From: Candidatus Daviesbacteria bacterium RIFCSPHIGHO2_12_FULL_37_16
GTDB lineage: Bacteria; Patescibacteriota; Microgenomatia; Daviesbacterales; UBA10151
Direction: 5' to 3'
DNA: 64,000 nucleotides
Assembly (NCBI GenBank): GCA_001776785.1
Contig: MFDF01000008.1
Coordinates: forward strand, 18,443-82,442
Under the pieces are notes generated by a model that was not told the origin of the DNA, did no database searches, and was given only the letters and a program-made list of their open reading frames with translations. Made by a program: the position numbers and the translations under genes. This document shows positions 743 to 18,123 of the stretch, one piece after another. Positions within the stretch are counted from its first letter, which is position 1, and each line of letters begins with the position of its first letter.

Positions 743-1760
743 ATTTTTTTAAAGTATGTTCTAATTTTTTCTGAAAATTGTCTGAGGAAATTCTTGCATC
801 TATATCCAGAGTTTCTGGATCATAAGCATCAGTTACTGCAAAAAGCCAGGATTTAATATCAGTTTTTTGGGATAAATGTTTTTGGTCTTTATCAGAATTG
901 GCCCAGACATCATTTGCATATATAACTATTTTTTGCAGGGGTAGCCTCAACCTTTGGGAAGCAATCATTCCCCACTCTCTGTCATGGTTGATATCAAGCT
1001 GGGCTCCCCCATAAGCATCTATTGCCCTGTGCAGATGATAAGAAGTAAAGCCTGTGGGATTTCCCTTCTTATCAAAGTTAATATAAAGCTGGTAGTTTTG
1101 ATAAACAGGCACAGCCCCGGCTGAACCTGAATGGTCAATATTTTGATAAATAAATGATGGAATGATTGCCCTTCTTGAGGTTGGAGAGTATCTTAATTCT
1201 TCAACAATTGATAAAAGTGTATCCTCTCTTTGGCTTTTTAACTCCAGATCCAAAATTTCAGGATTTTTTAAATAAAAGTTTATTAATTTCTCACCCTTCC
1301 AGGATAAAACTGCTAGAATAATTTCTGGATGATAAAGCTTGTAAGTTTGTTTAATTAAATCTATTAAATCACTCTTTTTACTAAAGTTAACTCTTTTTAA
1401 TTTTAAGTACTGTAAAAGTGAAATTACCCCCTTTAAATAGCCCCACCCAGAGTCATAATATCTTGACCTCCAGGCATATTTATAAGCATAAATATCCTGT
1501 TTGTGCTTTAAATATTCAGGAGGTTTATTTGACTCTTTTTTTACAAAATTATCCTGATACCAGTCATCCTCTGATTTACTCCAGTATGGATAGCTTTTTC
1601 TGTCATCCTGAGGCTCTGTAATTATAAAAGTTGCAGCTTTAATAGATCTGGATAAACCTCTCTGGCTTTTATACTCAGACCCGTTCTTTTTAATAGAATC
1701 CCAGGCCTTTTTTAGAACTGCATCTGCAGATTTGCCCTCAAATAAAAAACCTGTATTCAT
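735..1760 (-). CDS. thymidylate-synthase-fold protein lacking the catalytic cysteine (ThyA-like paralogue, function unknown)
   Basis: Motif-by-motif similarity to ThyA: N-term GSEYKSQRGLSRSIKAATF ~ GTQKNDRTGTGTLSIFG; SRRAIIPSFIY ~ SRRIIVSAWNV; HRAIDAYGG ~ QRSCDVFLG; the protein contains no Cys at all (ThyA nucleophile position reads VPVYQNYQLY). Confidence 0.5.
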   Translation of the reverse strand: MNTGFLFEGKSADAVLKKAWDSIKKNGSEYKSQRGLSRSIKAATFIITEPQDDRKSYPYWSKSEDDWYQDNFVKKESNKPPEYLKHKQDIYAYKYAWRSRYYDSGWGYLKGVISLLQYLKLKRVNFSKKSDLIDLIKQTYKLYHPEIILAVLSWKGEKLINFYLKNPEILDLELKSQREDTLLSIVEELRYSPTSRRAIIPSFIYQNIDHSGSAGAVPVYQNYQLYINFDKKGNPTGFTSYHLHRAIDAYGGAQLDINHDREWGMIASQRLRLPLQKIVIYANDVWANSDKDQKHLSQKTDIKSWLFAVTDAYDPETLDIDARISSDNFQKKLEHTLKKFK

Positions 1761-1762
1761 AA

Positions 1763-2416
1763 TTAATTTTTTGGAATTTGGGGCAGGGCAAATTTTTGTT
1801 TTAACTGTTTAATGTTCCCTTTAGCAATTAACTTTTCTTCTTTTTTGCTCTTCTCAGAAAGCCTGCCCACCATAATATCTTTTTTATGCCACCTTGATTG
1901 AACCACTTTTACAGGAGCAGATAAAGGATAAAATACCAGCTGACAAAACCTTTCACCAGGATAAATTCTGACTACCTGGTTTGAAGTGTTATTAGTAATT
2001 GGGATCAAAAGCCTGCCTTCATAACCTGCATCCACAATTCCTGACAGGTCAACAGACAGGCCTTTCCTGTTTATTGAAGATCTTGGGTATAAAACTGCCA
2101 TCAAATCATCAGGTAAAGAGACTTCCTCTAAAGTTGAAGCAACTACTGATTCTTTTGGCAAAAGGTCAAAAAATTGTCCATGCTCAAGCTCTATTAGTTC
2201 AAACCTGTCCCTTTCATCTAAATAATCTACTAAAAATGCTTCCCTGCCTTTTTCAGTCAGCCCCCAGACTTTAGGGACCATAAAACTATAACCAAGTCTT
2301 AAATCAATTGAGTGGGACTGGATCTGAAATTGGTCTATCTGGGGAGAAAATTTAAGTTTGCCAGATTTTAAATATTGTAAAATCTGATCCTTTACTAAAA
2401 TACCTGTTGAAACCAT
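1763..2416 (-). CDS. dcd: dCTP deaminase (possibly bifunctional dCTP deaminase/dUTPase)
   Basis: PRSSINRKGL...IVDAGYEG matches the dCTP deaminase/dUTPase jelly-roll motifs (GRSSLARLGL...IDPGWSG). Confidence 0.8.
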   Translation of the reverse strand: MVSTGILVKDQILQYLKSGKLKFSPQIDQFQIQSHSIDLRLGYSFMVPKVWGLTEKGREAFLVDYLDERDRFELIELEHGQFFDLLPKESVVASTLEEVSLPDDLMAVLYPRSSINRKGLSVDLSGIVDAGYEGRLLIPITNNTSNQVVRIYPGERFCQLVFYPLSAPVKVVQSRWHKKDIMVGRLSEKSKKEEKLIAKGNIKQLKQKFALPQIPKN

Positions 2417-2434
2417 AGTTTTTGTTATACCTTA

Positions 2435-3271
2435 CTACAATACAATCTGCAATCCTTTTATAGCCTCCATAGCTTTATATTGTGAATTTATTTGATCCAC
2501 AATTTCTGAAACTAAACTTACATCTCCTTTTTCTGCCCTTTCAAACCAGTTTACTTCTGCCTCTAAATTTATTTTTTTGTGGGTATTTTTTCTTTTAATA
2601 ATCTCCTTAGCTGCTTCGTAGTGGACCCCATAAATATGGGCATTAGAAATAGAGTGGGTATATTTTCCAACCTTCACCCCTAGTCTTGCTGCTAAAATCC
2701 TCTGTAAAAGTCCAAATCCTGCAGCATCATGGGGACACCCTAAAATCATATCATTAGACCTGACAATTAAATGAAGATGTAATTTTCCTCTAATAATATT
2801 AACTGTAAAAGTGTAAGGGCAGGGGATGTTAGCTTTTTTAAAAGTTGCAGAAAGCCCATCATTTGCAGGGTCCCACATCATGACAACTCCATGCCTTGAA
2901 GAGGGTTCTTTCTCAAGCATTTTTATTAAAAGTGCAATCTGGTCCCTGCCAAAGTGGTGTCTCCACCTATACCCATAAGCTGTTGATACAACCCCATCCA
3001 CATTTGTAAAATCATCCCAGATTTTAGTGAACTGATCTAAAAACTCACTAGGCCTTCTGGAACCCATTAAAAACCAAATCTGTTCTGCCACAAAAATTTT
3101 AACTGGAATTTTTCTCAAAGTTAGGATTGGAAAACCATCCTCTGGTTCTATTTCGATAGTTTTCCCTGGTAAAATTTTTACCTTATGATTAGTCCTCTCG
3201 TTTATCTCTTCATAGCCTGAATTCATGATATCTTTTAGGATTTTTTGATACTGCAAATCAAATTGGGTCAT
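2435..3271 (-). CDS. thyA: thymidylate synthase (ThyA family)
   Basis: SRRHGVVMMWDP, catalytic Cys in IPCPYTFTVNI, RSNDMILGCPHDAAGFGLL, and Asn in HSISNAHIY align with ThyA R126/R127, C146, R166-D169, N177 regions. Confidence 0.8.
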   Translation of the reverse strand: MTQFDLQYQKILKDIMNSGYEEINERTNHKVKILPGKTIEIEPEDGFPILTLRKIPVKIFVAEQIWFLMGSRRPSEFLDQFTKIWDDFTNVDGVVSTAYGYRWRHHFGRDQIALLIKMLEKEPSSRHGVVMMWDPANDGLSATFKKANIPCPYTFTVNIIRGKLHLHLIVRSNDMILGCPHDAAGFGLLQRILAARLGVKVGKYTHSISNAHIYGVHYEAAKEIIKRKNTHKKINLEAEVNWFERAEKGDVSLVSEIVDQINSQYKAMEAIKGLQIVL

Positions 3272-3329: not shown

Positions 3330-3896
3330 ATGAGCAAAATTTCAATTATTGCAGCTATGAGTAAAAACAGGGTTATTGGGACAAAAAATAAACTTCCATG
3401 GAATATCCCTGATGAATTAAAAAGGTTTAGGCAAATTACAGAAGGTCATCCAATAATCATGGGCAGAAAAACCCATGAATCCATTGGTAGGGTTTTACCC
3501 AATAGGCTAAACATTATTATCACAAGGGATGAAAATTATATTCGCAAGAATAATCTTGCTCATTATCAAACAAGATATAAAGTTGATGGTGTAATAATTG
3601 TCCATTCTTTGGAAGAAGCCATAAAAACTGCTAAGAATATATATCCTTCGGCTGCGCCCGCCTTTGGCGTGGCTGCGCCTCAGGATGACAAAAGTGAAAT
3701 CTTCATTATTGGGGGCGGGGAGATTTACAGACAGGCTTTACCCTTGGCAGATAAACTATATTTAACAGTAATAGATAAGAAATATGAAGGTGACACCTTC
3801 TTTCCAGACTATTCTGAGTTTAAAAAGGTGATAAAAGAAGAAAAAAAACAAACTGATGGTGGAGTTTCCTATACTCTTTTTGAACTTGAAAAATGA
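3330..3896 (+). CDS. folA: dihydrofolate reductase with two in-frame insertions
   Basis: IIAAMSKNRVIGTKNKLPWNIPDELKRF and IIMGRKTHESIG are classic DHFR motifs; extra loops NYIRKNNLAHYQTRYK and YPSAAPAFGVAAPQDDKS relative to E. coli DHFR. Confidence 0.85.
   Translation: MSKISIIAAMSKNRVIGTKNKLPWNIPDELKRFRQITEGHPIIMGRKTHESIGRVLPNRLNIIITRDENYIRKNNLAHYQTRYKVDGVIIVHSLEEAIKTAKNIYPSAAPAFGVAAPQDDKSEIFIIGGGEIYRQALPLADKLYLTVIDKKYEGDTFFPDYSEFKKVIKEEKKQTDGGVSYTLFELEK
3535..3580. repeat. short repeat, copy A (in frame within folA); 31-nt core near-identical to 17382-17415
   Basis: attatattcgcaagaataatcttgCtcattatc (A) vs atttatattcgcaagaataatcttgTtcattatc (B), followed by aaacaagatataa / aaaaaagatataa. 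Confidence 0.6.
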
Positions 3897-4264
3897 TATC
3901 TTGACCACCCCATAATTTTTCTGATAAGTTATTCTTAACTTCATGGCAAGGGAAATGAACGGAATTAGCCAGGATATTCAAAAGATAGAAACTTTCACTG
4001 ACCAACTTTCAACAAATAAGCATTATTCAGAAAAAGGGGGACACCAAGCTAGAGGTTTCTGGTGGAGAGATATCAGAAGAATCTATGGAGGGTCTACAGA
4101 TGTAACACCAAAAGATTTTAGCTGGATGCAGCGGAGAAAAATGCCGCGTAACCCAAGCGATGGCAAACATTGACTTTTAAGCCTAATTCCTGCTAATATA
4201 CCCAAATCACACATCTAGTATTTTAATTTCCTAAATTCATGATACTAGAGAGGTTTAAGGAAAT

Positions 4265-5209
4265 ATGGCAATTTCAACACCTTCAATGCAGGAGTTATTA
4301 ACAGCAGGTGTCCACTTTGGACACAAGATCTCCCGTGGCCACCCTAAGATGAAGCAATTTATCTATGGTGCAAGAGAAGGAGTGCATATTATTGATTTAG
4401 CCATGGCAGATGAAAAGTTAAAAGAAGCAGCAGAGGAAGCTTATAAGTTAGGAAAAGCTGGAAAAGTTTTATTAATTGTAGGTACAAAAAAACAAGCCCA
4501 GCAAAAAATAGAAAGCTTGGCTAAAGAAGCAAACTCCTTTTATTTAAACAAAAGGTGGGTTGGAGGGCTTTTGACAAATTTTGAAGAAATCAGAAAAAAT
4601 ATTAAAAAATTAAATGACTTAAAAATCCAGCAGGAAAAAGGAGAACTTTCAAGGTATACAAAAAAAGAACAGCTTTTAATCTCCAGAAAATTAACTAAAT
4701 TCATCTCAGAACTTGGAGGGATTGCAGATATGGATAAAATCCCTGATGCAATGTTTATTGTAGATGCAGTTTCAGATAAAACTGCAGTTGTAGAAGCCAA
4801 AAAAACAGGAGTAGAAGTTTTAGGCCTTTGTGACACAAATGCAGACCCATATTTTTTTGACTTCCCGGTCCCTGCAAATGATGATGGAATTAAATCAATA
4901 AACCTCATTTGTGACACAGTTTTGGGAGCATATGTAAAAGGCAAAAAATCCTCCTCCGCTCAAGCTACGGAGGACAAGGAAGCTGGAATAAAAGAAGAGT
5001 CGAAGGAGTCGGAAGGGACTGAAGAGCCGAAGGTCAAGAAAACTGGGGAAAAAGCAGGGGAGAAAAAATCTGAAAAAATAGAAGAAAAAACAGAAAATCC
5101 TGAAGAACCGGCACCAGCAGTTGATGCAGCAGTAGCCCATGAGACAGCTGCCCTAGAAGAAGAAGTAGAAAAAGTAGTTTTAGAGGAAAGTGAGAGGAAA
5201 ATAGAATAA
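4265..5209 (+). CDS. rpsB: 30S ribosomal protein S2 with acidic C-terminal extension
   Basis: MQELLTAGVHFGHKISRGHPKMKQFIYGAREGVHIIDL is the S2 signature; the Glu/Lys-rich tail contains a GC-rich hairpin repeat. Confidence 0.95.
   Translation: MAISTPSMQELLTAGVHFGHKISRGHPKMKQFIYGAREGVHIIDLAMADEKLKEAAEEAYKLGKAGKVLLIVGTKKQAQQKIESLAKEANSFYLNKRWVGGLLTNFEEIRKNIKKLNDLKIQQEKGELSRYTKKEQLLISRKLTKFISELGGIADMDKIPDAMFIVDAVSDKTAVVEAKKTGVEVLGLCDTNADPYFFDFPVPANDDGIKSINLICDTVLGAYVKGKKSSSAQATEDKEAGIKEESKESEGTEEPKVKKTGEKAGEKKSEKIEEKTENPEEPAPAVDAAVAHETAALEEEVEKVVLEESERKIE
4953..4975. repeat. GC-rich hairpin motif cctccgctcaagctacggaggac (copy in rpsB); related copy at 8388-8411
   Basis: TCCTCCG...CGGAGGA stem; 20/23 identical to cctccgctaaagctacggcaggac in the proS leader. 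Confidence 0.5.
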
Positions 5210-8299: not shown

Positions 8300-8530
8300 A
8301 TATTTCAAACTTGAAACTTGAAATTTAATAACAGAATTTATTATAATCAATTCAAAGCTGTGAAAGAGTTTCCCGCTCTGGAGTCCGCCTCCGCTAAAGC
8401 TACGGCAGGACGAGCTGGGTGCGATAAGCATCCCCGGTTGAACCGTAAAAACTTAAATTGAGAAGTAATCAAGGTGGTACCACGAATGCACTTCGTCCTT
8501 GCAAGAGTGTAAGGAAGGAGTGCTTTTTTA
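8300..8530 (+). promoter_or_regulatory. putative T-box riboswitch leader of proS
   Basis: aatcaaGGTGGTACCacg resembles the T-box consensus AGGGUGGNACCGCG; followed by hairpin gcacttcgtccttgc...aaggaaggagtgc plus TTTTTT directly before the proS start; region is GC-rich relative to flanks. Confidence 0.5.
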
Positions 8531-10697: not shown

Positions 10698-11861
10698 ATG
10701 GCAGTTACTAAAAACATAATTAAACAGCCTAAAGCACAAGTTCAGGTACAAGTAACTATGCCCTGGGCAGATGTGGAGCCTAAATGGAATGAAACTCTGC
10801 AAAAAATGTCAGCTGAAGTTGAACTTGCAGGTTTTAGAAAAGGCACAGCCCCCCTTAACATGGTTGAACAGCAGCTTTCAACCAGGCTTTCAGATGAAGT
10901 TGTCAAAGTTATAATGCCACAAGCCTTAATTGAGGCCCTCCAGGGTACAAACATTGTCCCAATTGATTATCCTAAATATCAGTCCATCCAGTTTCAAAAA
11001 GGGACTGATTTGGTCTTCACAGCTCTTTTAACAGAGCGCCCGGCAGTCACTGTTGGTGAGTATAAAACTATAAAGGTTGCAAGGCCTGCACAAAAAACTA
11101 TCACAGATGAGGAAGTTGCAAAAGTTATAGATGATATCTTCAAAAGATGGAAGCTTAGACAACCTCAAACTCCAACTCCAGCTCAAAGTACACCAGTTCC
11201 TGCAGCGCCCCAATCTGGTGGAAGCTTAAGCTTTAATGCTCCAGCTGATACAACTCAGCCTGCCTCGCCTGACTCGCTTCGCGAAGCGAGCAGCGGTCAA
11301 GGCGGGCCTCAGGCAACTCCTGCTCAAGCAGCTGCTTCCCAAGCTCCAGATGATAACTTTGCTAAAGCAGTTGGGGCAAATTCACTGGAGGATCTAAAAA
11401 CTAAAATTAAAACAGACTTAGAAAATGAAGCAAAATATAATAATGAATTAGACTATGAAGAAGCAATCCTCCAGGAAGTAGAAAAAATAACCACAGTTGA
11501 TATCCCTGATATTTTAGTCTCAGATGAACTCTCAAGGATGATGCTTTCTTTACAAAGGAATGTGACAGACAGGGGACTTTTACTGGATGAATACCTAAAA
11601 TCCCAGGGCAAAACCCAGGAATCCTTAAAGAATGAGTGGAGGCCCCAGGCTGAAAAAAATGTCAGGATGGAGCTTGGGTTATCTGAGGTAGCCAGAGCTG
11701 AAAATGTAAATATCACAGACCAGGAACTCCAGGCTGAGATAGATAAAATCCAGGATAACAGGGTCAAATCCCAATTCAACTCCCAGGAACCAAGGTTGCA
11801 CCTAAGACACGCATTAAGACAAACAAAAACTCTTAACCTCCTAAAAACTTTAGTTAAGTAA
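10698..11861 (+). CDS. tig: trigger factor with a Pro/Ala/Gln-rich low-complexity insertion
   Basis: N-terminal ribosome-binding region with GFRKG(T) signature and PPIase/C-domain order; ~60-aa GC-rich insert 11160-11355. Confidence 0.85.
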   Translation: MAVTKNIIKQPKAQVQVQVTMPWADVEPKWNETLQKMSAEVELAGFRKGTAPLNMVEQQLSTRLSDEVVKVIMPQALIEALQGTNIVPIDYPKYQSIQFQKGTDLVFTALLTERPAVTVGEYKTIKVARPAQKTITDEEVAKVIDDIFKRWKLRQPQTPTPAQSTPVPAAPQSGGSLSFNAPADTTQPASPDSLREASSGQGGPQATPAQAAASQAPDDNFAKAVGANSLEDLKTKIKTDLENEAKYNNELDYEEAILQEVEKITTVDIPDILVSDELSRMMLSLQRNVTDRGLLLDEYLKSQGKTQESLKNEWRPQAEKNVRMELGLSEVARAENVNITDQELQAEIDKIQDNRVKSQFNSQEPRLHLRHALRQTKTLNLLKTLVK

Positions 11862-12222: not shown

Positions 12223-12330
12223 ATTTTTGCTGAGCGAGCGCAGCGAGTCGAAGCATTTCCTATAACTTTTTCCATCTTTGCATTCAATGATATAAACAAA
12301 CCATTTCCACTTTTTCATTTTTGGCTGAGC

Positions 12331-12350
12331 CCTGCCTGCCGGCAGGCAGG
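12331..12350. repeat. perfect 20-nt GC palindrome cctgcctgccggcaggcagg in a GC-rich intergenic patch
   Basis: Self-complementary; flanked by duplicated frame tttt(g)gctgagc...gtcgaagc at 12228-12260 and 12318-12362. Confidence 0.6.
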
Positions 12351-12400
12351 TTGTCGAAGCCCTACCTCCATTTGACTTTTAAATATTAAACTCATAATAT

Positions 12401-14223: not shown

Positions 14224-15750
14224 ATGGTTTACTATCGTAAGTATCGGCCACAGACTCTTGATGAAATTATTGGCCAGGAGCATATTAAAAATGCCCTAAA
14301 AAAAGCCCATGAATCCAATAGGCTTTCCCATGCTTATCTTTTTGCAGGACCCAAAGGCTCTGGTAAAACCTCAACAGCCAGGATTTTAGCAAAAATGATA
14401 AATTGTGAAGTTGGAGGTCCCTGCAATAAATGCTCTACATGTCTCTCTATAACTGATGGAAGCAACCTTGACCTGATAGAAATAGATGCAGCTTCAAACA
14501 GGGGAATTGATGATATAAGGGAGCTTAGGGAAAAGATAAAGCTTGCCCCCACTTCTTCTAAGAAAAAAGTTTATATTATAGATGAAGTCCATATGCTCAC
14601 AACTGAAGCTTTTAATGCACTTTTAAAAACTCTGGAAGAACCACCTTCCCATGTTTTATTCATCTTAGCAACCACAGACCCACACAAAATCCCCCAAACT
14701 ATTTTATCCAGGGTTCAAAGGTTTGACTTCCAGGCTGCTAAAGAAGAAGAAATAATTGAATATTTAAAAAATGTAATAAAGATAGAAAAGTTAAAAATTA
14801 GTGATGAAGCCCTTAATTTGATTGCTAAAAAATCAGAGGGAAGTTTCAGGGATGGATTAAAAATTCTTGACCAGCTTGCCAGTTCAGGTAATGAAATAAC
14901 TCTTGAGGATGTTGAAAATATTTATAAATCAGGGAAATCTGAAGATTCAATTAAGCTTTTAAATTTTATTGCAGATGCTGATACAAAATCTGCTTTAGAA
15001 TTTGTCACAGAACTTTCAGAAAGAGGAATAAGTTTAAAAGAGTTTATAAATCAAACATTACATACACTAAGACTGCTTCTTTTAATAAAACATGACACTA
15101 AAAAAGATGAAAGTCTTTCTGGTCTTTCTCAAAAACTATCAAGTCCTCAAATTGTAAAAATTGTAAATTCGCTTGGTATCGCTTTAGAAAAAATGAAGTT
15201 TGTTTCAATTCCAACCCTGCCTCTTGAAATTGCAGTAGTGGAGAGCTGCCAGGAACAAGAGGTACCACGGGGGGAAAGGGTATCACAGGTACCACAGGGA
15301 GAAGAAAATAATATTGGAAATAAGCCCCGTGATACTCGTGATACTTCAAAACCCCGTGATATCTCCAATGAGCTGATTTCTCCAGCAATTCCTGCCCCCA
15401 TCTCAGATGCCCAGGAAATTATTATTATCAAAGACAAATGGGCCTATATTTTAGAAACTATAAAACCCTACAACTTTTCTTTGGAAGCACTTTTAAAACA
15501 GTCCAAAATAGTAAGTTTTGAATCAGAAACATTAATTTTAGAAGTACCTTATTCATTCCATAAGAGAATTTTAGAAGCTCCAAAATCAAGAGAACTTTTA
15601 GAGTCAGTTTTAGCAGAAGTTTTGGGAAAAAGCGCTAAAGTCTCAACAGTTTTGGGAACCAGGCCTGTTAGGGTAGAGGAATTAGCCAATGTAGAAGTAG
15701 CAGCTGATGATGAGATTATAAAAATTGCCTCAGAGATTTTTAATTCTTAA
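14224..15750 (+). CDS. dnaX: DNA polymerase III subunit gamma/tau
   Basis: YRPQTLDEIIGQEH, Walker A GPKGSGKTS, zinc module CNKCSTC, SRVQRFDF sensor; middle section holds a tandem PRDTRDTSKPRD repeat. Confidence 0.9.
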   Translation: MVYYRKYRPQTLDEIIGQEHIKNALKKAHESNRLSHAYLFAGPKGSGKTSTARILAKMINCEVGGPCNKCSTCLSITDGSNLDLIEIDAASNRGIDDIRELREKIKLAPTSSKKKVYIIDEVHMLTTEAFNALLKTLEEPPSHVLFILATTDPHKIPQTILSRVQRFDFQAAKEEEIIEYLKNVIKIEKLKISDEALNLIAKKSEGSFRDGLKILDQLASSGNEITLEDVENIYKSGKSEDSIKLLNFIADADTKSALEFVTELSERGISLKEFINQTLHTLRLLLLIKHDTKKDESLSGLSQKLSSPQIVKIVNSLGIALEKMKFVSIPTLPLEIAVVESCQEQEVPRGERVSQVPQGEENNIGNKPRDTRDTSKPRDISNELISPAIPAPISDAQEIIIIKDKWAYILETIKPYNFSLEALLKQSKIVSFESETLILEVPYSFHKRILEAPKSRELLESVLAEVLGKSAKVSTVLGTRPVRVEELANVEVAADDEIIKIASEIFNS

Positions 15751-17358: not shown

Positions 17359-17381
17359 GTCTTTAAAATTTATTCTTTATA

Positions 17382-17431
17382 ATTTATATTCGCAAGAATA
17401 ATCTTGTTCATTATCTTTAAAAAAGATATAA
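17382..17431. repeat. short repeat copy B (intergenic, glyA-ybaB), near-identical to folA-internal copy 3535-3580
   Basis: 31/32-nt identity. Confidence 0.6.
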
Positions 17432-17433
17432 TT

Positions 17434-17715
17434 ATGTCTATGGGAATAATGGACAGTATGAAACAGCTTGGGGATCTCAAAAAGATGAGAGACCAGGCTA
17501 TGGAAGTTCAAAAAAAGCTAGCTCTAATAAAAATTACAGTAGAACACAAAGGTGTAACTATTGTCATGACTGGTGATCAAAAAGTAGTCTCTATCTCAGG
17601 GGAAAATGATCTTGATAAAGTCACAGAAGCTGTTAATGAAGCATTAAAACAATCCCAAAAAGTTGCTGCAGAAGAGATGAGATCCTTAATGGGCGGTCAA
17701 ATCCCCGGAATGTAA
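17434..17715 (+). CDS. ybaB: nucleoid-associated protein YbaB/EbfC
   Basis: MKQLGDLKKMRDQAMEVQKKL...VTIVMTGDQKVVSISGEN; ATG at 17434 preferred over the TTG at 17404. Confidence 0.85.
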   Translation: MSMGIMDSMKQLGDLKKMRDQAMEVQKKLALIKITVEHKGVTIVMTGDQKVVSISGENDLDKVTEAVNEALKQSQKVAAEEMRSLMGGQIPGM

Positions 17716-17721
17716 CCAGAA

Positions 17722-18123
17722 TCAGTGATTAATGATTACTGATTTAGGATTAATGAATGTTTTGCTCTTTTTAATAAATCCCTGTAACAATTTATCAACT
17801 ATATTCGCTTGATCTGCTAAATTCATCATTGCCTCATTATTCAAATAACCAACATCTTTTGCAATTAAAATAAAGTTTTTCAATTCTGATAATGAGCCTT
17901 TTGATAAATAATAAAACTGAACCTTCTCTTTATAACCTTGCCTACCAAAACCTTCTGCAATATTAGCCGTTATAGAAGCTGCAGCTCTTCGCATCTGATC
18001 AGTAATAGAATAAGTTTCTTCCTTTGGAAAGTTCTTAGTAATTTTGTAAATCAAGATAACTAGTTTATGCCCTTCTTTCCAGACATTTAAATCAGTAAAA
18101 GTTTCAATTTTCCCATTCCTCAT
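17722..18123 (-). CDS. four-helix-bundle protein (TIGR02436-like, 23S rRNA intervening-sequence protein family)
   Basis: W..GHKLVILIYKITKNFPKEETYSITDQMRRAAASITANIAEGFGR...SLSEL pattern. Confidence 0.8.
   Translation of the reverse strand: MRNGKIETFTDLNVWKEGHKLVILIYKITKNFPKEETYSITDQMRRAAASITANIAEGFGRQGYKEKVQFYYLSKGSLSELKNFILIAKDVGYLNNEAMMNLADQANIVDKLLQGFIKKSKTFINPKSVIINH

Follow-up and report, generated by a model that had tools for sequence, protein, structure and literature searches.

The Rickettsia palindromic element (RPE) RPE-1, reportedly described by Ogata and co-workers in 2000, is said to be a palindromic repeat that lies in frame in protein genes, where it is translated as an extra segment and tolerated at the protein surface; it reportedly measures about 100-150 bp and occurs in dozens of copies per Rickettsia genome. 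Here we describe two extra in-frame segments, inserts 1 and 2, in the dihydrofolate reductase (DHFR) gene folA of Candidatus Daviesbacteria bacterium RIFCSPHIGHO2_12_FULL_37_16, a groundwater bacterium of the Candidate Phyla Radiation (CPR; Microgenomates). They were found in a stretch of 64,000 nt of contig MFDF01000008.1, which is called the window throughout. Like RPE-1, both inserts are in frame, occupy a surface position and are translated as an extra peptide; unlike it, they measure 39 and 48 nt, and each was counted in 64 kb of genome only. On balance, it seems rather probable that two unrelated segments are present in folA and that both are tolerated, insert 1 being a copy of an element that lies upstream of ybaB and insert 2 being a unit of the class of repetitive extragenic palindromes (REPs) tagged by CGTC or TGTC.

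The superfamily of CGTC-tagged REPs (Di Nocera et al. 2013, PMC3733652) is defined by a terminal CGTC tag, often TGTC or CCTC, by stems of 8-9 bp starting with two A-T pairs, by loops of 4-5 nt (some families have other loop lengths) and by short tails, which are mostly CCA. These REPs are dispersed in many copies per genome, often as inverted dimers. Rickettsia conorii RPE-4 and RPE-6 were placed in the superfamily, in which Neisseria dRS3 is also included (PMC3733652). Intragenic, in-frame members are listed as well, and the supplement of the same paper lists the REP-encoded peptides VIPAKAGI, VIPACAGMT and WIPAFVRMT, those of the VIPAKAGI and ...RMT types being given for Rickettsia and Coxiella. 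REPINs, for their part, are GTAG-tagged, extragenic and tied to a RAYT transposase gene (Bertels and Rainey; PMC8049555, PMC5581495). The inverted hairpin pairs observed in three CPR DHFR loops (loci L024, L146 and L147) resemble REP doublets of that kind; unlike REPINs, however, the CGTC repeats are associated with no transposase gene (PMC3733652).

The folA gene (3330-3896, plus strand) encodes a DHFR of 188 residues, which is recognized by the Pfam family DHFR_1 (PF00186) with an E value of 2.9e-51 and a score of 173.8 bits (cut-off 25). Its divergent neighbour is thyA (2435-3271, minus strand; Pfam Thymidylat_synt, E = 1.3e-52). When the protein was aligned with 22 homologues and with E. 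coli DHFR, both loops stood out as extra, and the phmmer alignments with DHFRs of the PDB broke into two stretches around the inserts. A previous reading of this DNA made from the letters alone, referred to below as the sequence-only reading, had claimed that folA carries two additional in-frame loops relative to canonical DHFR. This is borne out by the homologues and by the E. coli enzyme, the alignment showing both loops to be lineage-restricted insertions and not canonical features. The loops had also been located at the right places, 3535-3580 and 3646-3690; as DNA elements, their limits have to be moved to 3537-3575 and 3643-3690.

An AlphaFold2 model of the folA product, built from an alignment of 68 sequences, had a mean predicted local distance difference test score (pLDDT) of 87.6 and a predicted template-modelling (TM) score of 0.84. 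Foldseek matched it to solved DHFRs with a TM score of about 0.89 (E = 1.7e-20), and the top matches were all DHFRs. In insert 1, residues 72-80 have pLDDT values below 50, and the 10-residue blocks over insert 2 average 79 and 62. According to this predicted structure, both inserts map to surface loops of the DHFR fold, as the sequence-only reading had anticipated. From the alignment with E. coli DHFR and from the known structure of that enzyme, we take insert 1 to lie in the CD loop, between strands C and D, and insert 2 to lie between helix E and strand E; both sites would belong to the adenosine-binding subdomain, presumably distant from the active site. The sequence and structure-model analysis gave no evidence of a function in folA for either insert, and both are best seen as tolerated surface-loop passengers, presumably neutral for the enzyme. 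They would persist by virtue of a length that is a multiple of three, the lack of a stop codon in the frame used and a position in a DHFR surface loop. As regards the analogy with RPEs, the closest orthologue has neither insert; both keep the reading frame and are placed in surface loops of low confidence, within a DHFR model that is otherwise predicted confidently.

Insert 1 (39 nt, 3537-3575, plus strand) encodes residues 70-82 (YIRKNNLAHYQTR) and was delimited by alignment and by an empty site in the closest relative. Because TATA is present both at its start and directly after its end, its boundary is ambiguous by up to 4 nt. The insert is missing in 22 of the 23 aligned sequences, the only carrier (P0001) being a 99%-identical variant; among 120 homologues it is peculiar to this species, and the corresponding segment has the modal length in 96 of the 114 homologues that could be parsed. 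In the closest relative (P0002, 163 residues; 74% identity in the search and 85% over the aligned columns), the DNA of locus L012 shows the empty site gaaaat/tacaaagtt, and the gene order is the same as in the window. The ends of the two copies of the element, 39 nt in folA and 42 nt at ybaB, are not inverted repeats, folding in them being limited to one internal hairpin of 6 bp and another small one, and insert 1 carries no CGTC or TGTC tag.

The 31-mer TATATTCGCAAGAATAATCTTGCTCATTATC is found exactly at 3537-3567 and, with one mismatch, at 17385-17415, in the spacer between glyA and ybaB, 13.8 kb away. This near-identity had been reported by the sequence-only reading and was recovered here, with no third match in the window at up to 3 mismatches (0 expected, 100 shuffles). 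Apart from this pair (D9, 35 nt, 94%), the window has no long direct repeat of near-identical sequence. In an alignment of 7 copies from at least 5 genomes (A2), the conserved core extends over 32 nt, TTATATTCGCAAGAATAATCTTGCTCATTATC, at 3536-3567 in folA and at 17384-17415 upstream of ybaB (plus strand in both cases), 31 of the 32 positions being identical between the two. It contains the hairpin GCAAGA-ATAA-TCTTGC (3544-3559, plus strand; predicted RNA fold of -8.2 kcal/mol, z = -2.1). Likewise, the similarity does continue further, as had been claimed: past a gap of 3 nt, it resumes with AAACAAGATATAA in folA and AAAAAAGATATAA upstream of ybaB.

The ybaB-upstream copy is 42 nt long (17385-17426, plus strand) and is flanked by TATAATT at 17378-17384 and 17427-17433. 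The ybaB/ebfC gene itself (17440-17715, plus strand) has its probable start at ATG 17440 (MGIMDS...), with an alternative at ATG 17434. Its homologues, of 91-92 residues (Pfam YbaB_DNA_bd), begin with MG(I/L)MD, and the start annotated at 17434 probably lies 6 nt too far upstream. The YbaB protein of the window is identical to those of Candidatus Daviesbacteria bacterium GW2011_GWA1_36_8 and of the groundwater bin ACD_30. In locus L021, whose YbaB is 90% identical, the element (TTATATTCACAAGAATAATCTTGCTCATTATCT) is present at the orthologous spot upstream of ybaB; there, the core is followed by a different tail of 12 nt, then by TATAAT and the start codon, and the upstream gene is not glyA. 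Comparison of the upstream DNA showed that the element does not precede ybaB in the relatives L019 and L022. The tail AAA(C/A)AAGA, on the other hand, is common to the two window copies only and is found in A2 neither in L021 nor in the copies from tRNA loci described below.

TATAAT is located 6-9 nt before the ATG of ybaB in four genomes (window, L019, L021 and L022), and no Shine-Dalgarno sequence is seen in any of the four, an arrangement suggestive of a ybaB mRNA that is leaderless or nearly so. In the window, this TATAAT (17427-17432, plus strand) is the likely -10 box of ybaB, as read from the sequence, with a putative promoter role. The hexamer TTGTTC inside the element (17404-17409, plus strand) lies 17 nt upstream of it, and the element provides a TTG(T/C)TC hexamer at this spacing both in the window and in L021. 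The element would overlap the -35 region of a putative ybaB promoter. The TTGTTC-17-TATAAT pair was not listed by a consensus promoter scan of the window, since TTGTTC matches TTGACA at only 3 of 6 positions. Downstream of ybaB, an open reading frame (ORF) of 133 codons is present on the minus strand (17722-18123), and an ORF of the same length occupies the same position in L021; its product may resemble the four-helix-bundle proteins for which intervening sequences of 23S rRNA often code.

In templated (microhomology-mediated) insertions, an ectopic sequence is copied in during repair or replication. Insert 1 is like them in being a short copy from 13.8 kb away, with junctions at donor/target identities of 3 and 5 nt; these fall on AAT and TATAA, both present in the donor and in the target. 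It is unlike them in its donor, since conservation across genomes and occurrence at tRNA-Ile junctions, both seen for this element, would not be expected of an arbitrary one. To judge from the aligned copies, insert 1 is most likely a copy of the ybaB-upstream element of its own genome. We infer both the direction of copying and the mechanism of insertion: the ybaB-upstream copy would be the older one because it is shared with L021 at the orthologous place despite a different upstream gene. The element of about 42 nt would have been copied ectopically into folA at the AATTATAAA site, by microhomology-templated repair or by replication template switching; by an alternative route, a small element would have inserted at TATA with target duplication. 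Both routes fit the data on insert 1 and are inseparable here. Read in the folA frame, the 42-nt version would give ...CAT TAT CTT TAA..., with an in-frame stop. The folA copy is without exactly 3 nt (TTT) and reads ...CAT TAT CAA ACA AGA, from which the stop is gone. It appears that only a stop-free variant survived in folA, where insert 1 would be translated as a disordered loop of 13 residues.

Insert 2 (48 nt, ATCCTTCG...CTCAGGATGACA, 3643-3690, plus strand; residues 105-121) was considered as a candidate TGTC-tagged REP, read on the minus strand, on the basis of its fold, its GC content and its shared termini. Its GC content is about 67% (0.675 over 3642-3689) versus a window mean of 36%, and it is the first-listed 30-nt GC island in the window. 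The predicted hairpin has an energy of -24.8 kcal/mol on the plus strand (z = -3.3) and of -26.4 kcal/mol on the minus strand (z = -4.1), with a stem closed by ATCCT/AGGAT. The direct repeat GGCTGCGCC, to which the sequence-only reading had drawn attention together with the GC richness of this loop, occurs in the window only at 3650-3658 and 3671-3679 (plus strand; 0.04 expected), with a spacing of 21 nt, and flanks the mini-hairpin CGCC-TTT-GGCG. The stretch 3650-3679 would represent the expanded middle of the REP unit, produced by an internal duplication of 21 nt. The minus strand of 3643-3690 starts with TGTCATCC, which contains TGTC (the corresponding sequence in L147 is CGTCATTCTGG). The stem ATCCTGAG/CGAAGGAT has 8 positions, the first pairs being A-T and then T-A; 6 positions are Watson-Crick pairs, and the others form a tandem G/A mismatch. 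A second CTCAGGATGAC in the window (1602-1612, minus strand, within an ORF of 341 codons) lies in an AT-rich context without a hairpin and was judged to be a chance match.

Relatives of insert 2 were searched for in a viral-contig collection with the pattern ATCCTTCG, 5-35 nt, CTCAGGATGAC. At least 171 copies were found in at least 120 environmental loci (1.09 Mb), when about a dozen would be expected by chance in the whole collection according to a rough estimate. Two to six copies are present in 35 of these loci (at least 120 in all), and an inverted partner lies near 37 of the copies (at least 171). The base following GATGAC is A in 142 and G in 28 of these, corresponding to TGTC and CGTC tags on the other strand. 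The commonest form among the matches listed is ATCCTTCGCTGCGCTCAGGATGACA; it has only CTGCG in the middle, and the window unit differs from it by two extra bases outside the internal duplication. The commonest relatives have loops of 5 nt (CTGCG, CTCCG and CTTCG), and the tails of the viral-collection copies are mostly CTC or CTT. The family character of insert 2 is seen across these other contigs, the 64-kb window holding one copy.

Comparable DNA was found in loop 2 of other DHFR genes, i.e. at the place of insert 2. Locus L023 has GATCCTGAAAC...GAGCTCAGGATGACA, and L024 has an inverted pair, GTCATTCTGAGCAAAGCGAAGAATCT followed by AGATCCTTCC...CTCTCAGGATGAC; both loops share the window terminus CTCAGGATGACA. 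The loops of L146 and L147 are inverted pairs ending in the variants CCAGAATGACA and CCAGCATGACA, and they read ARMT and ASMT, one frame from the QDD of the window. Since the loop termini are read in different frames, the conserved entity is the DNA and not the peptide. In other CPR DHFRs, loop 2 contains VVIPAKAGIQ (P0075), ...ARMT..., ...ASMT... or ...FAMT.... Insert 2 is thus like the CGTC superfamily in its TGTC tag, its AT-starting stem (ATCCT.../...AGGAT), its GC-rich hairpin and its in-frame position in a gene, and also in that its relatives occur as singles and as inverted pairs and in that CPR DHFR loops again contain peptides of the VIPAKAGI and ...RMT types. To the extent that sequence can tell, insert 2 appears to be a TGTC-tagged REP of the CGTC superfamily with an expanded loop, RPE-like in behaviour; no specific numbered family is claimed. 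The likeness to RPEs suggested by the sequence-only reading consequently stands for insert 2, with its TGTC tag, AT stem and hairpin (RPE-4/RPE-6 class), and has to be given up for insert 1, which has no tag and a low copy number.

The connection between helix E and strand E varies among CPR DHFRs: in 64 of 114 homologues, it exceeds the modal length of 18 residues by at least 4. Whatever the lineage, the insertion falls at the same point, 2-4 codons ahead of E(I/V)F. For 121 DHFRs, a neighbour-joining tree, computed with the loop columns masked and weakly resolved, gave 17 state changes for the peptide signature, which is present in 23 of these proteins. The nearest neighbours of the query (P0002, P0003, P0004, P0008 and P0010) are without the signature, and their loops are short. 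As far as the sequences go, this supports repeated gain and loss at a tolerant site, with no precise number of events. Segments of the VIASEAKQS, FAKASADK, SPLEGEGLGG and VSKVS types are also encountered in loop 2, and we take them, from their peptide patterns, to be other GC-rich repeat classes. Among the loop-2 repeat classes, only the VIPAKAGI and ...RMT types are backed by PMC3733652. Because many CPR DHFRs are occupied at this connection by varied repeats in varied frames, it appears to be a tolerant landing place, where CGTC/TGTC REP units and the other GC-rich classes would land repeatedly, as singles or as inverted pairs.

The distribution of the core of insert 1 is of another kind. 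When genomes (one per species) were scanned with a 22-nt core, 4 matches were obtained, 2 of them meaningful, with one copy per genome in those two, and a metagenome scan gave 6 matches, all at tRNA-Ile loci; these pattern searches return exact copies only, and the apparent conservation is inflated. No match to the core was found in the viral-contig collection. These scans point to a low-copy conserved element, about one per genome, and not to a high-copy dispersed repeat. Insert 1 does not look like a member of a high-copy dispersed family, as the sequence-only reading had implied, with two copies in 64 kb and one per genome in the two meaningful matches. The two other genome matches, L009 (Lachnospiraceae) and L011 (Bacteroidales), lie in unrelated contexts and are probably due to chance. 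In L009 (contig JAZNLG010000282.1 of a metagenome-assembled genome), 26 nt at 2007-2032, ATTCGCAAGAATAATCTTGCTCATTA, are identical to the core, which is longer than the 22-nt pattern and unexplained; the context is GC-richer, just downstream of a gene of 210 codons (2131-2763, minus strand).

Read at the tRNA loci as its reverse complement, GATAATGAGCAAGATTATTCTTGCGAA, the core runs precisely up to the point at which a tRNA-Ile(UAU) 3' half (TATAAGG...) starts. This junction is present in L008 (Candidatus Curtissbacteria) and the identical JGI contigs L014/L016/L018, in L010/L017, in L013 and in L015 (858 kb). The outer tRNA-Ile(UAU) is split in its anticodon loop (CT/TATA/A), and the intervening sequence holds a complete second tRNA-Ile(tat) gene. 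These nested genes are located at 6538-6733 in L010, 5840-6250 in L008 and 4650-4990 (minus strand) in L015, and L013 carries part of the locus on a contig of 1,020 nt. The halves of the outer tRNA still pair (acceptor GGATCCG/CGGATCC), the inner tRNA has a leader that is complementary to its trailer (TCTTGCTC/GAGCAAGA), and the composite is predicted to fold at -80.5 kcal/mol (z = -5.3). In L008 and L015, a further orphan 3' half and extra hairpin insertions are present. No description of this nested arrangement was found, a literature search on tRNA-Ile UAU introns in Patescibacteria having returned none. Rfam, at gathering thresholds, gave no match in the window, and at the related tRNA loci its matches were ordinary tRNAs only. 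ARAGORN detects no tRNA in the window either, so neither of the two copies there is linked to one.

Split and intron-containing tRNA genes are known in archaea (PMC4090602). As in these genes, the core lies within an anticodon-loop intervening sequence, and the predicted pairing of the ends of that sequence extends the anticodon stem; in contrast to them, the host is bacterial and the intervening sequence contains a complete second tRNA-Ile gene. An intron of the archaeal bulge-helix-bulge type was considered and rejected: no canonical motif could be drawn for the CPR loci, where the predicted fold is only an extended anticodon helix, and any splicing there would be hypothetical. We know of no splicing endonuclease in the CPR hosts of these nested genes.

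Several points weigh against the origin favoured above for insert 1. At each of the three kinds of site (folA, ybaB and the tRNA-Ile anticodon loop), the element is flanked by TATA, which would suit a site-specific mobile element equally well; the donor could be a third, unseen copy; the core at ybaB has a putative role only; the copy numbers of both elements come from 64 kb of genome only; and the metagenome scan was incomplete, as it missed L005 (JGI contig Ga0209541_10018246), which carries the pattern, and absences are weak evidence. Insert 1 and the ybaB copy might then be cargo-less derivatives of a small mobile or intron-like unit inserting at T/TATA/A, a doubtful proposal. The full form of this unit, about 130 nt, would carry a tRNA-Ile(UAU) and land in the anticodon loop (CTTATAA) of a resident tRNA-Ile(UAU), giving rise to nested genes. 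The core abutting the split 3' half in all the loci named above, with a complete inner tRNA inside, agrees with such a unit, and so do the TATA on both sides at the tRNA, folA and ybaB sites, the similarity of TCTTG(C/T)T, at the left end of the two copies in the window, to TCTTGCTCAT, the left end of the units in L010 and L008, and the GGATCCG-type tRNA-Ile, which is intact in L015 and split in L010 and L008. However, the copies are few (a single one per genome in the genome scan and none among the viral contigs), the units are without terminal inverted repeats, no transposase or endonuclease was identified, and the left part of L021 is unlike the left end of the unit. Moreover, TATA is native sequence at each site (a codon pair in folA, the -10 box at ybaB, the anticodon loop in the tRNA), so the apparent target duplications are possibly coincidental in AT-rich DNA, and the exact-copy searches inflate the conservation. 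It is unlikely that the core is the conserved end of an undescribed CPR insertion unit which targets TTATAA-like sites, carries a tRNA-Ile(UAU) that replaces the gene destroyed, and has cargo-less copies in folA and at ybaB; if true, one copy would have been co-opted as the -35 region of ybaB and the other translated as a DHFR loop. Far less credible is the retention of insert 1 as a signal in folA (internal promoter, operator or RNA structure) acting on folA or on the downstream 76-codon ORF and rpsB. The insert does copy a promoter-proximal element, with a TTGCTC hexamer, TATAAA 14 nt downstream of it and the conserved hairpin, but the hexamer spacing is 14 nt and not 17, the consensus promoter scan lists nothing inside insert 1, the hairpin is weak, and the closest relative does without the insert while its gene order is unchanged.

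As for insert 2, its assignment to the CGTC superfamily has to face the features in which it departs from it. Instead of a loop of 4-5 nt, it has a structured middle of 29 nt with a further hairpin and the 21-nt duplication; its tail is ATA (minus strand ...AAGGATATAT) and not CCA-like; its stem has two G/A mismatches; and its host belongs to the CPR, outside the five phyla named as hosts in the available portion of the source (PMC3733652). In addition, the REP unit is single-copy in the 64 kb of the window, and likewise over about 240 kb of CPR loci when DHFR genes are left aside, so that its mobility within this genome would be hypothetical. The insert could also be an old insertion that was inherited and repeatedly lost, and not a recent landing. 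In that case, an early CPR ancestor would have received one repeat in its DHFR, of which insert 2 would be the decayed remainder after vertical transmission and many losses or remodellings. The common insertion point in all lineages, the full inverted pairs in L024, L146 and L147 versus the single right-hand unit in the window, and the lengthened segment in 64 of 114 homologues can be read in this way. Yet more than one frame is used for the same terminal DNA, the loop is shared by several GC-rich classes that are unrelated (VIASEAKQS, VIPAKAGI, FAKASADK, SPLEGEGLGG and VSKVS types), the nearest relatives of the query are short-looped, the tree requires 17 state changes, and the window unit is, outside its duplication, only two extra bases away from the commonest form in unrelated contigs; we regard single ancient descent as improbable. 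Finally, the genome is metagenome-derived, and both inserts might be artefacts of assembly or binning (chimeric reads), or folA a pseudogene. This is extremely improbable: the same 188-residue DHFR, identical, is present on 23 contigs from independent ENA, JGI and Logan assemblies, which indicates that folA with both inserts is real and fixed in the species, and the frame is intact, the invariant DHFR residues are kept, the fold is confidently predicted and thyA is adjacent.

Besides the two segments of folA, which we continue to read as a ybaB-upstream copy and a REP unit, other features were observed in the window. Between folA and rpsB, an ORF of 76 codons (3943-4173, plus strand) has no Pfam match; the same-species contigs all have it in this position and at a length of 76-77 residues, and so does the relative L012. 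The trigger factor gene (10698-11861, plus strand) has a stretch, 11253-11332, with a GC content of 66%, which contains, in frame, the perfect palindrome CTCGCTTCGCGAAGCGAG; it sits in a low-complexity segment, ...TQPASPDSLREASSGQGGPQ..., and has the appearance of one more translated repeat insertion, belonging to a different class. Two intergenic GC-rich islands, at 8365-8437 and 12318-12369, the second with a perfect palindrome of 20 nt (CCTGCCTGCCGGCAGGCAGG), are further hairpin repeats of other classes. In dnaX (14224-15750), a repetitive segment, VPRGERVSQVPQGEE...KPRDTRDTSKPRD, extends over 15245-15330, and its type of reverse-strand translation (VSKVS/FDTS) is also found in DHFR loop 2 of P0005, P0031 and P0034.

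In the literature searched, no description was found of these repeat peptides or DNA words, nor of palindromic in-frame repeats in CPR. What is reported here adds a lineage to a known phenomenon; the kind of system is not new. The nested tRNA-Ile(UAU) genes with the core at their junction constitute the most novel thread, one that lies outside the window and forms a so far unexplained set. Insert 1 would represent a clean case of a promoter-proximal element copied into a coding region, of which only a stop-free variant survived. The recurrent occupation of one surface connection of DHFR would provide a natural map of the tolerance of this enzyme for 10-40 extra residues. More generally, the in-frame colonization of essential genes by hairpin repeats, earlier known from Rickettsia, Coxiella and a few other groups, would also take place in CPR, and caution is called for in the reading of CPR annotations, where many lineage-specific loops and small hypothetical proteins may be translated repeats.

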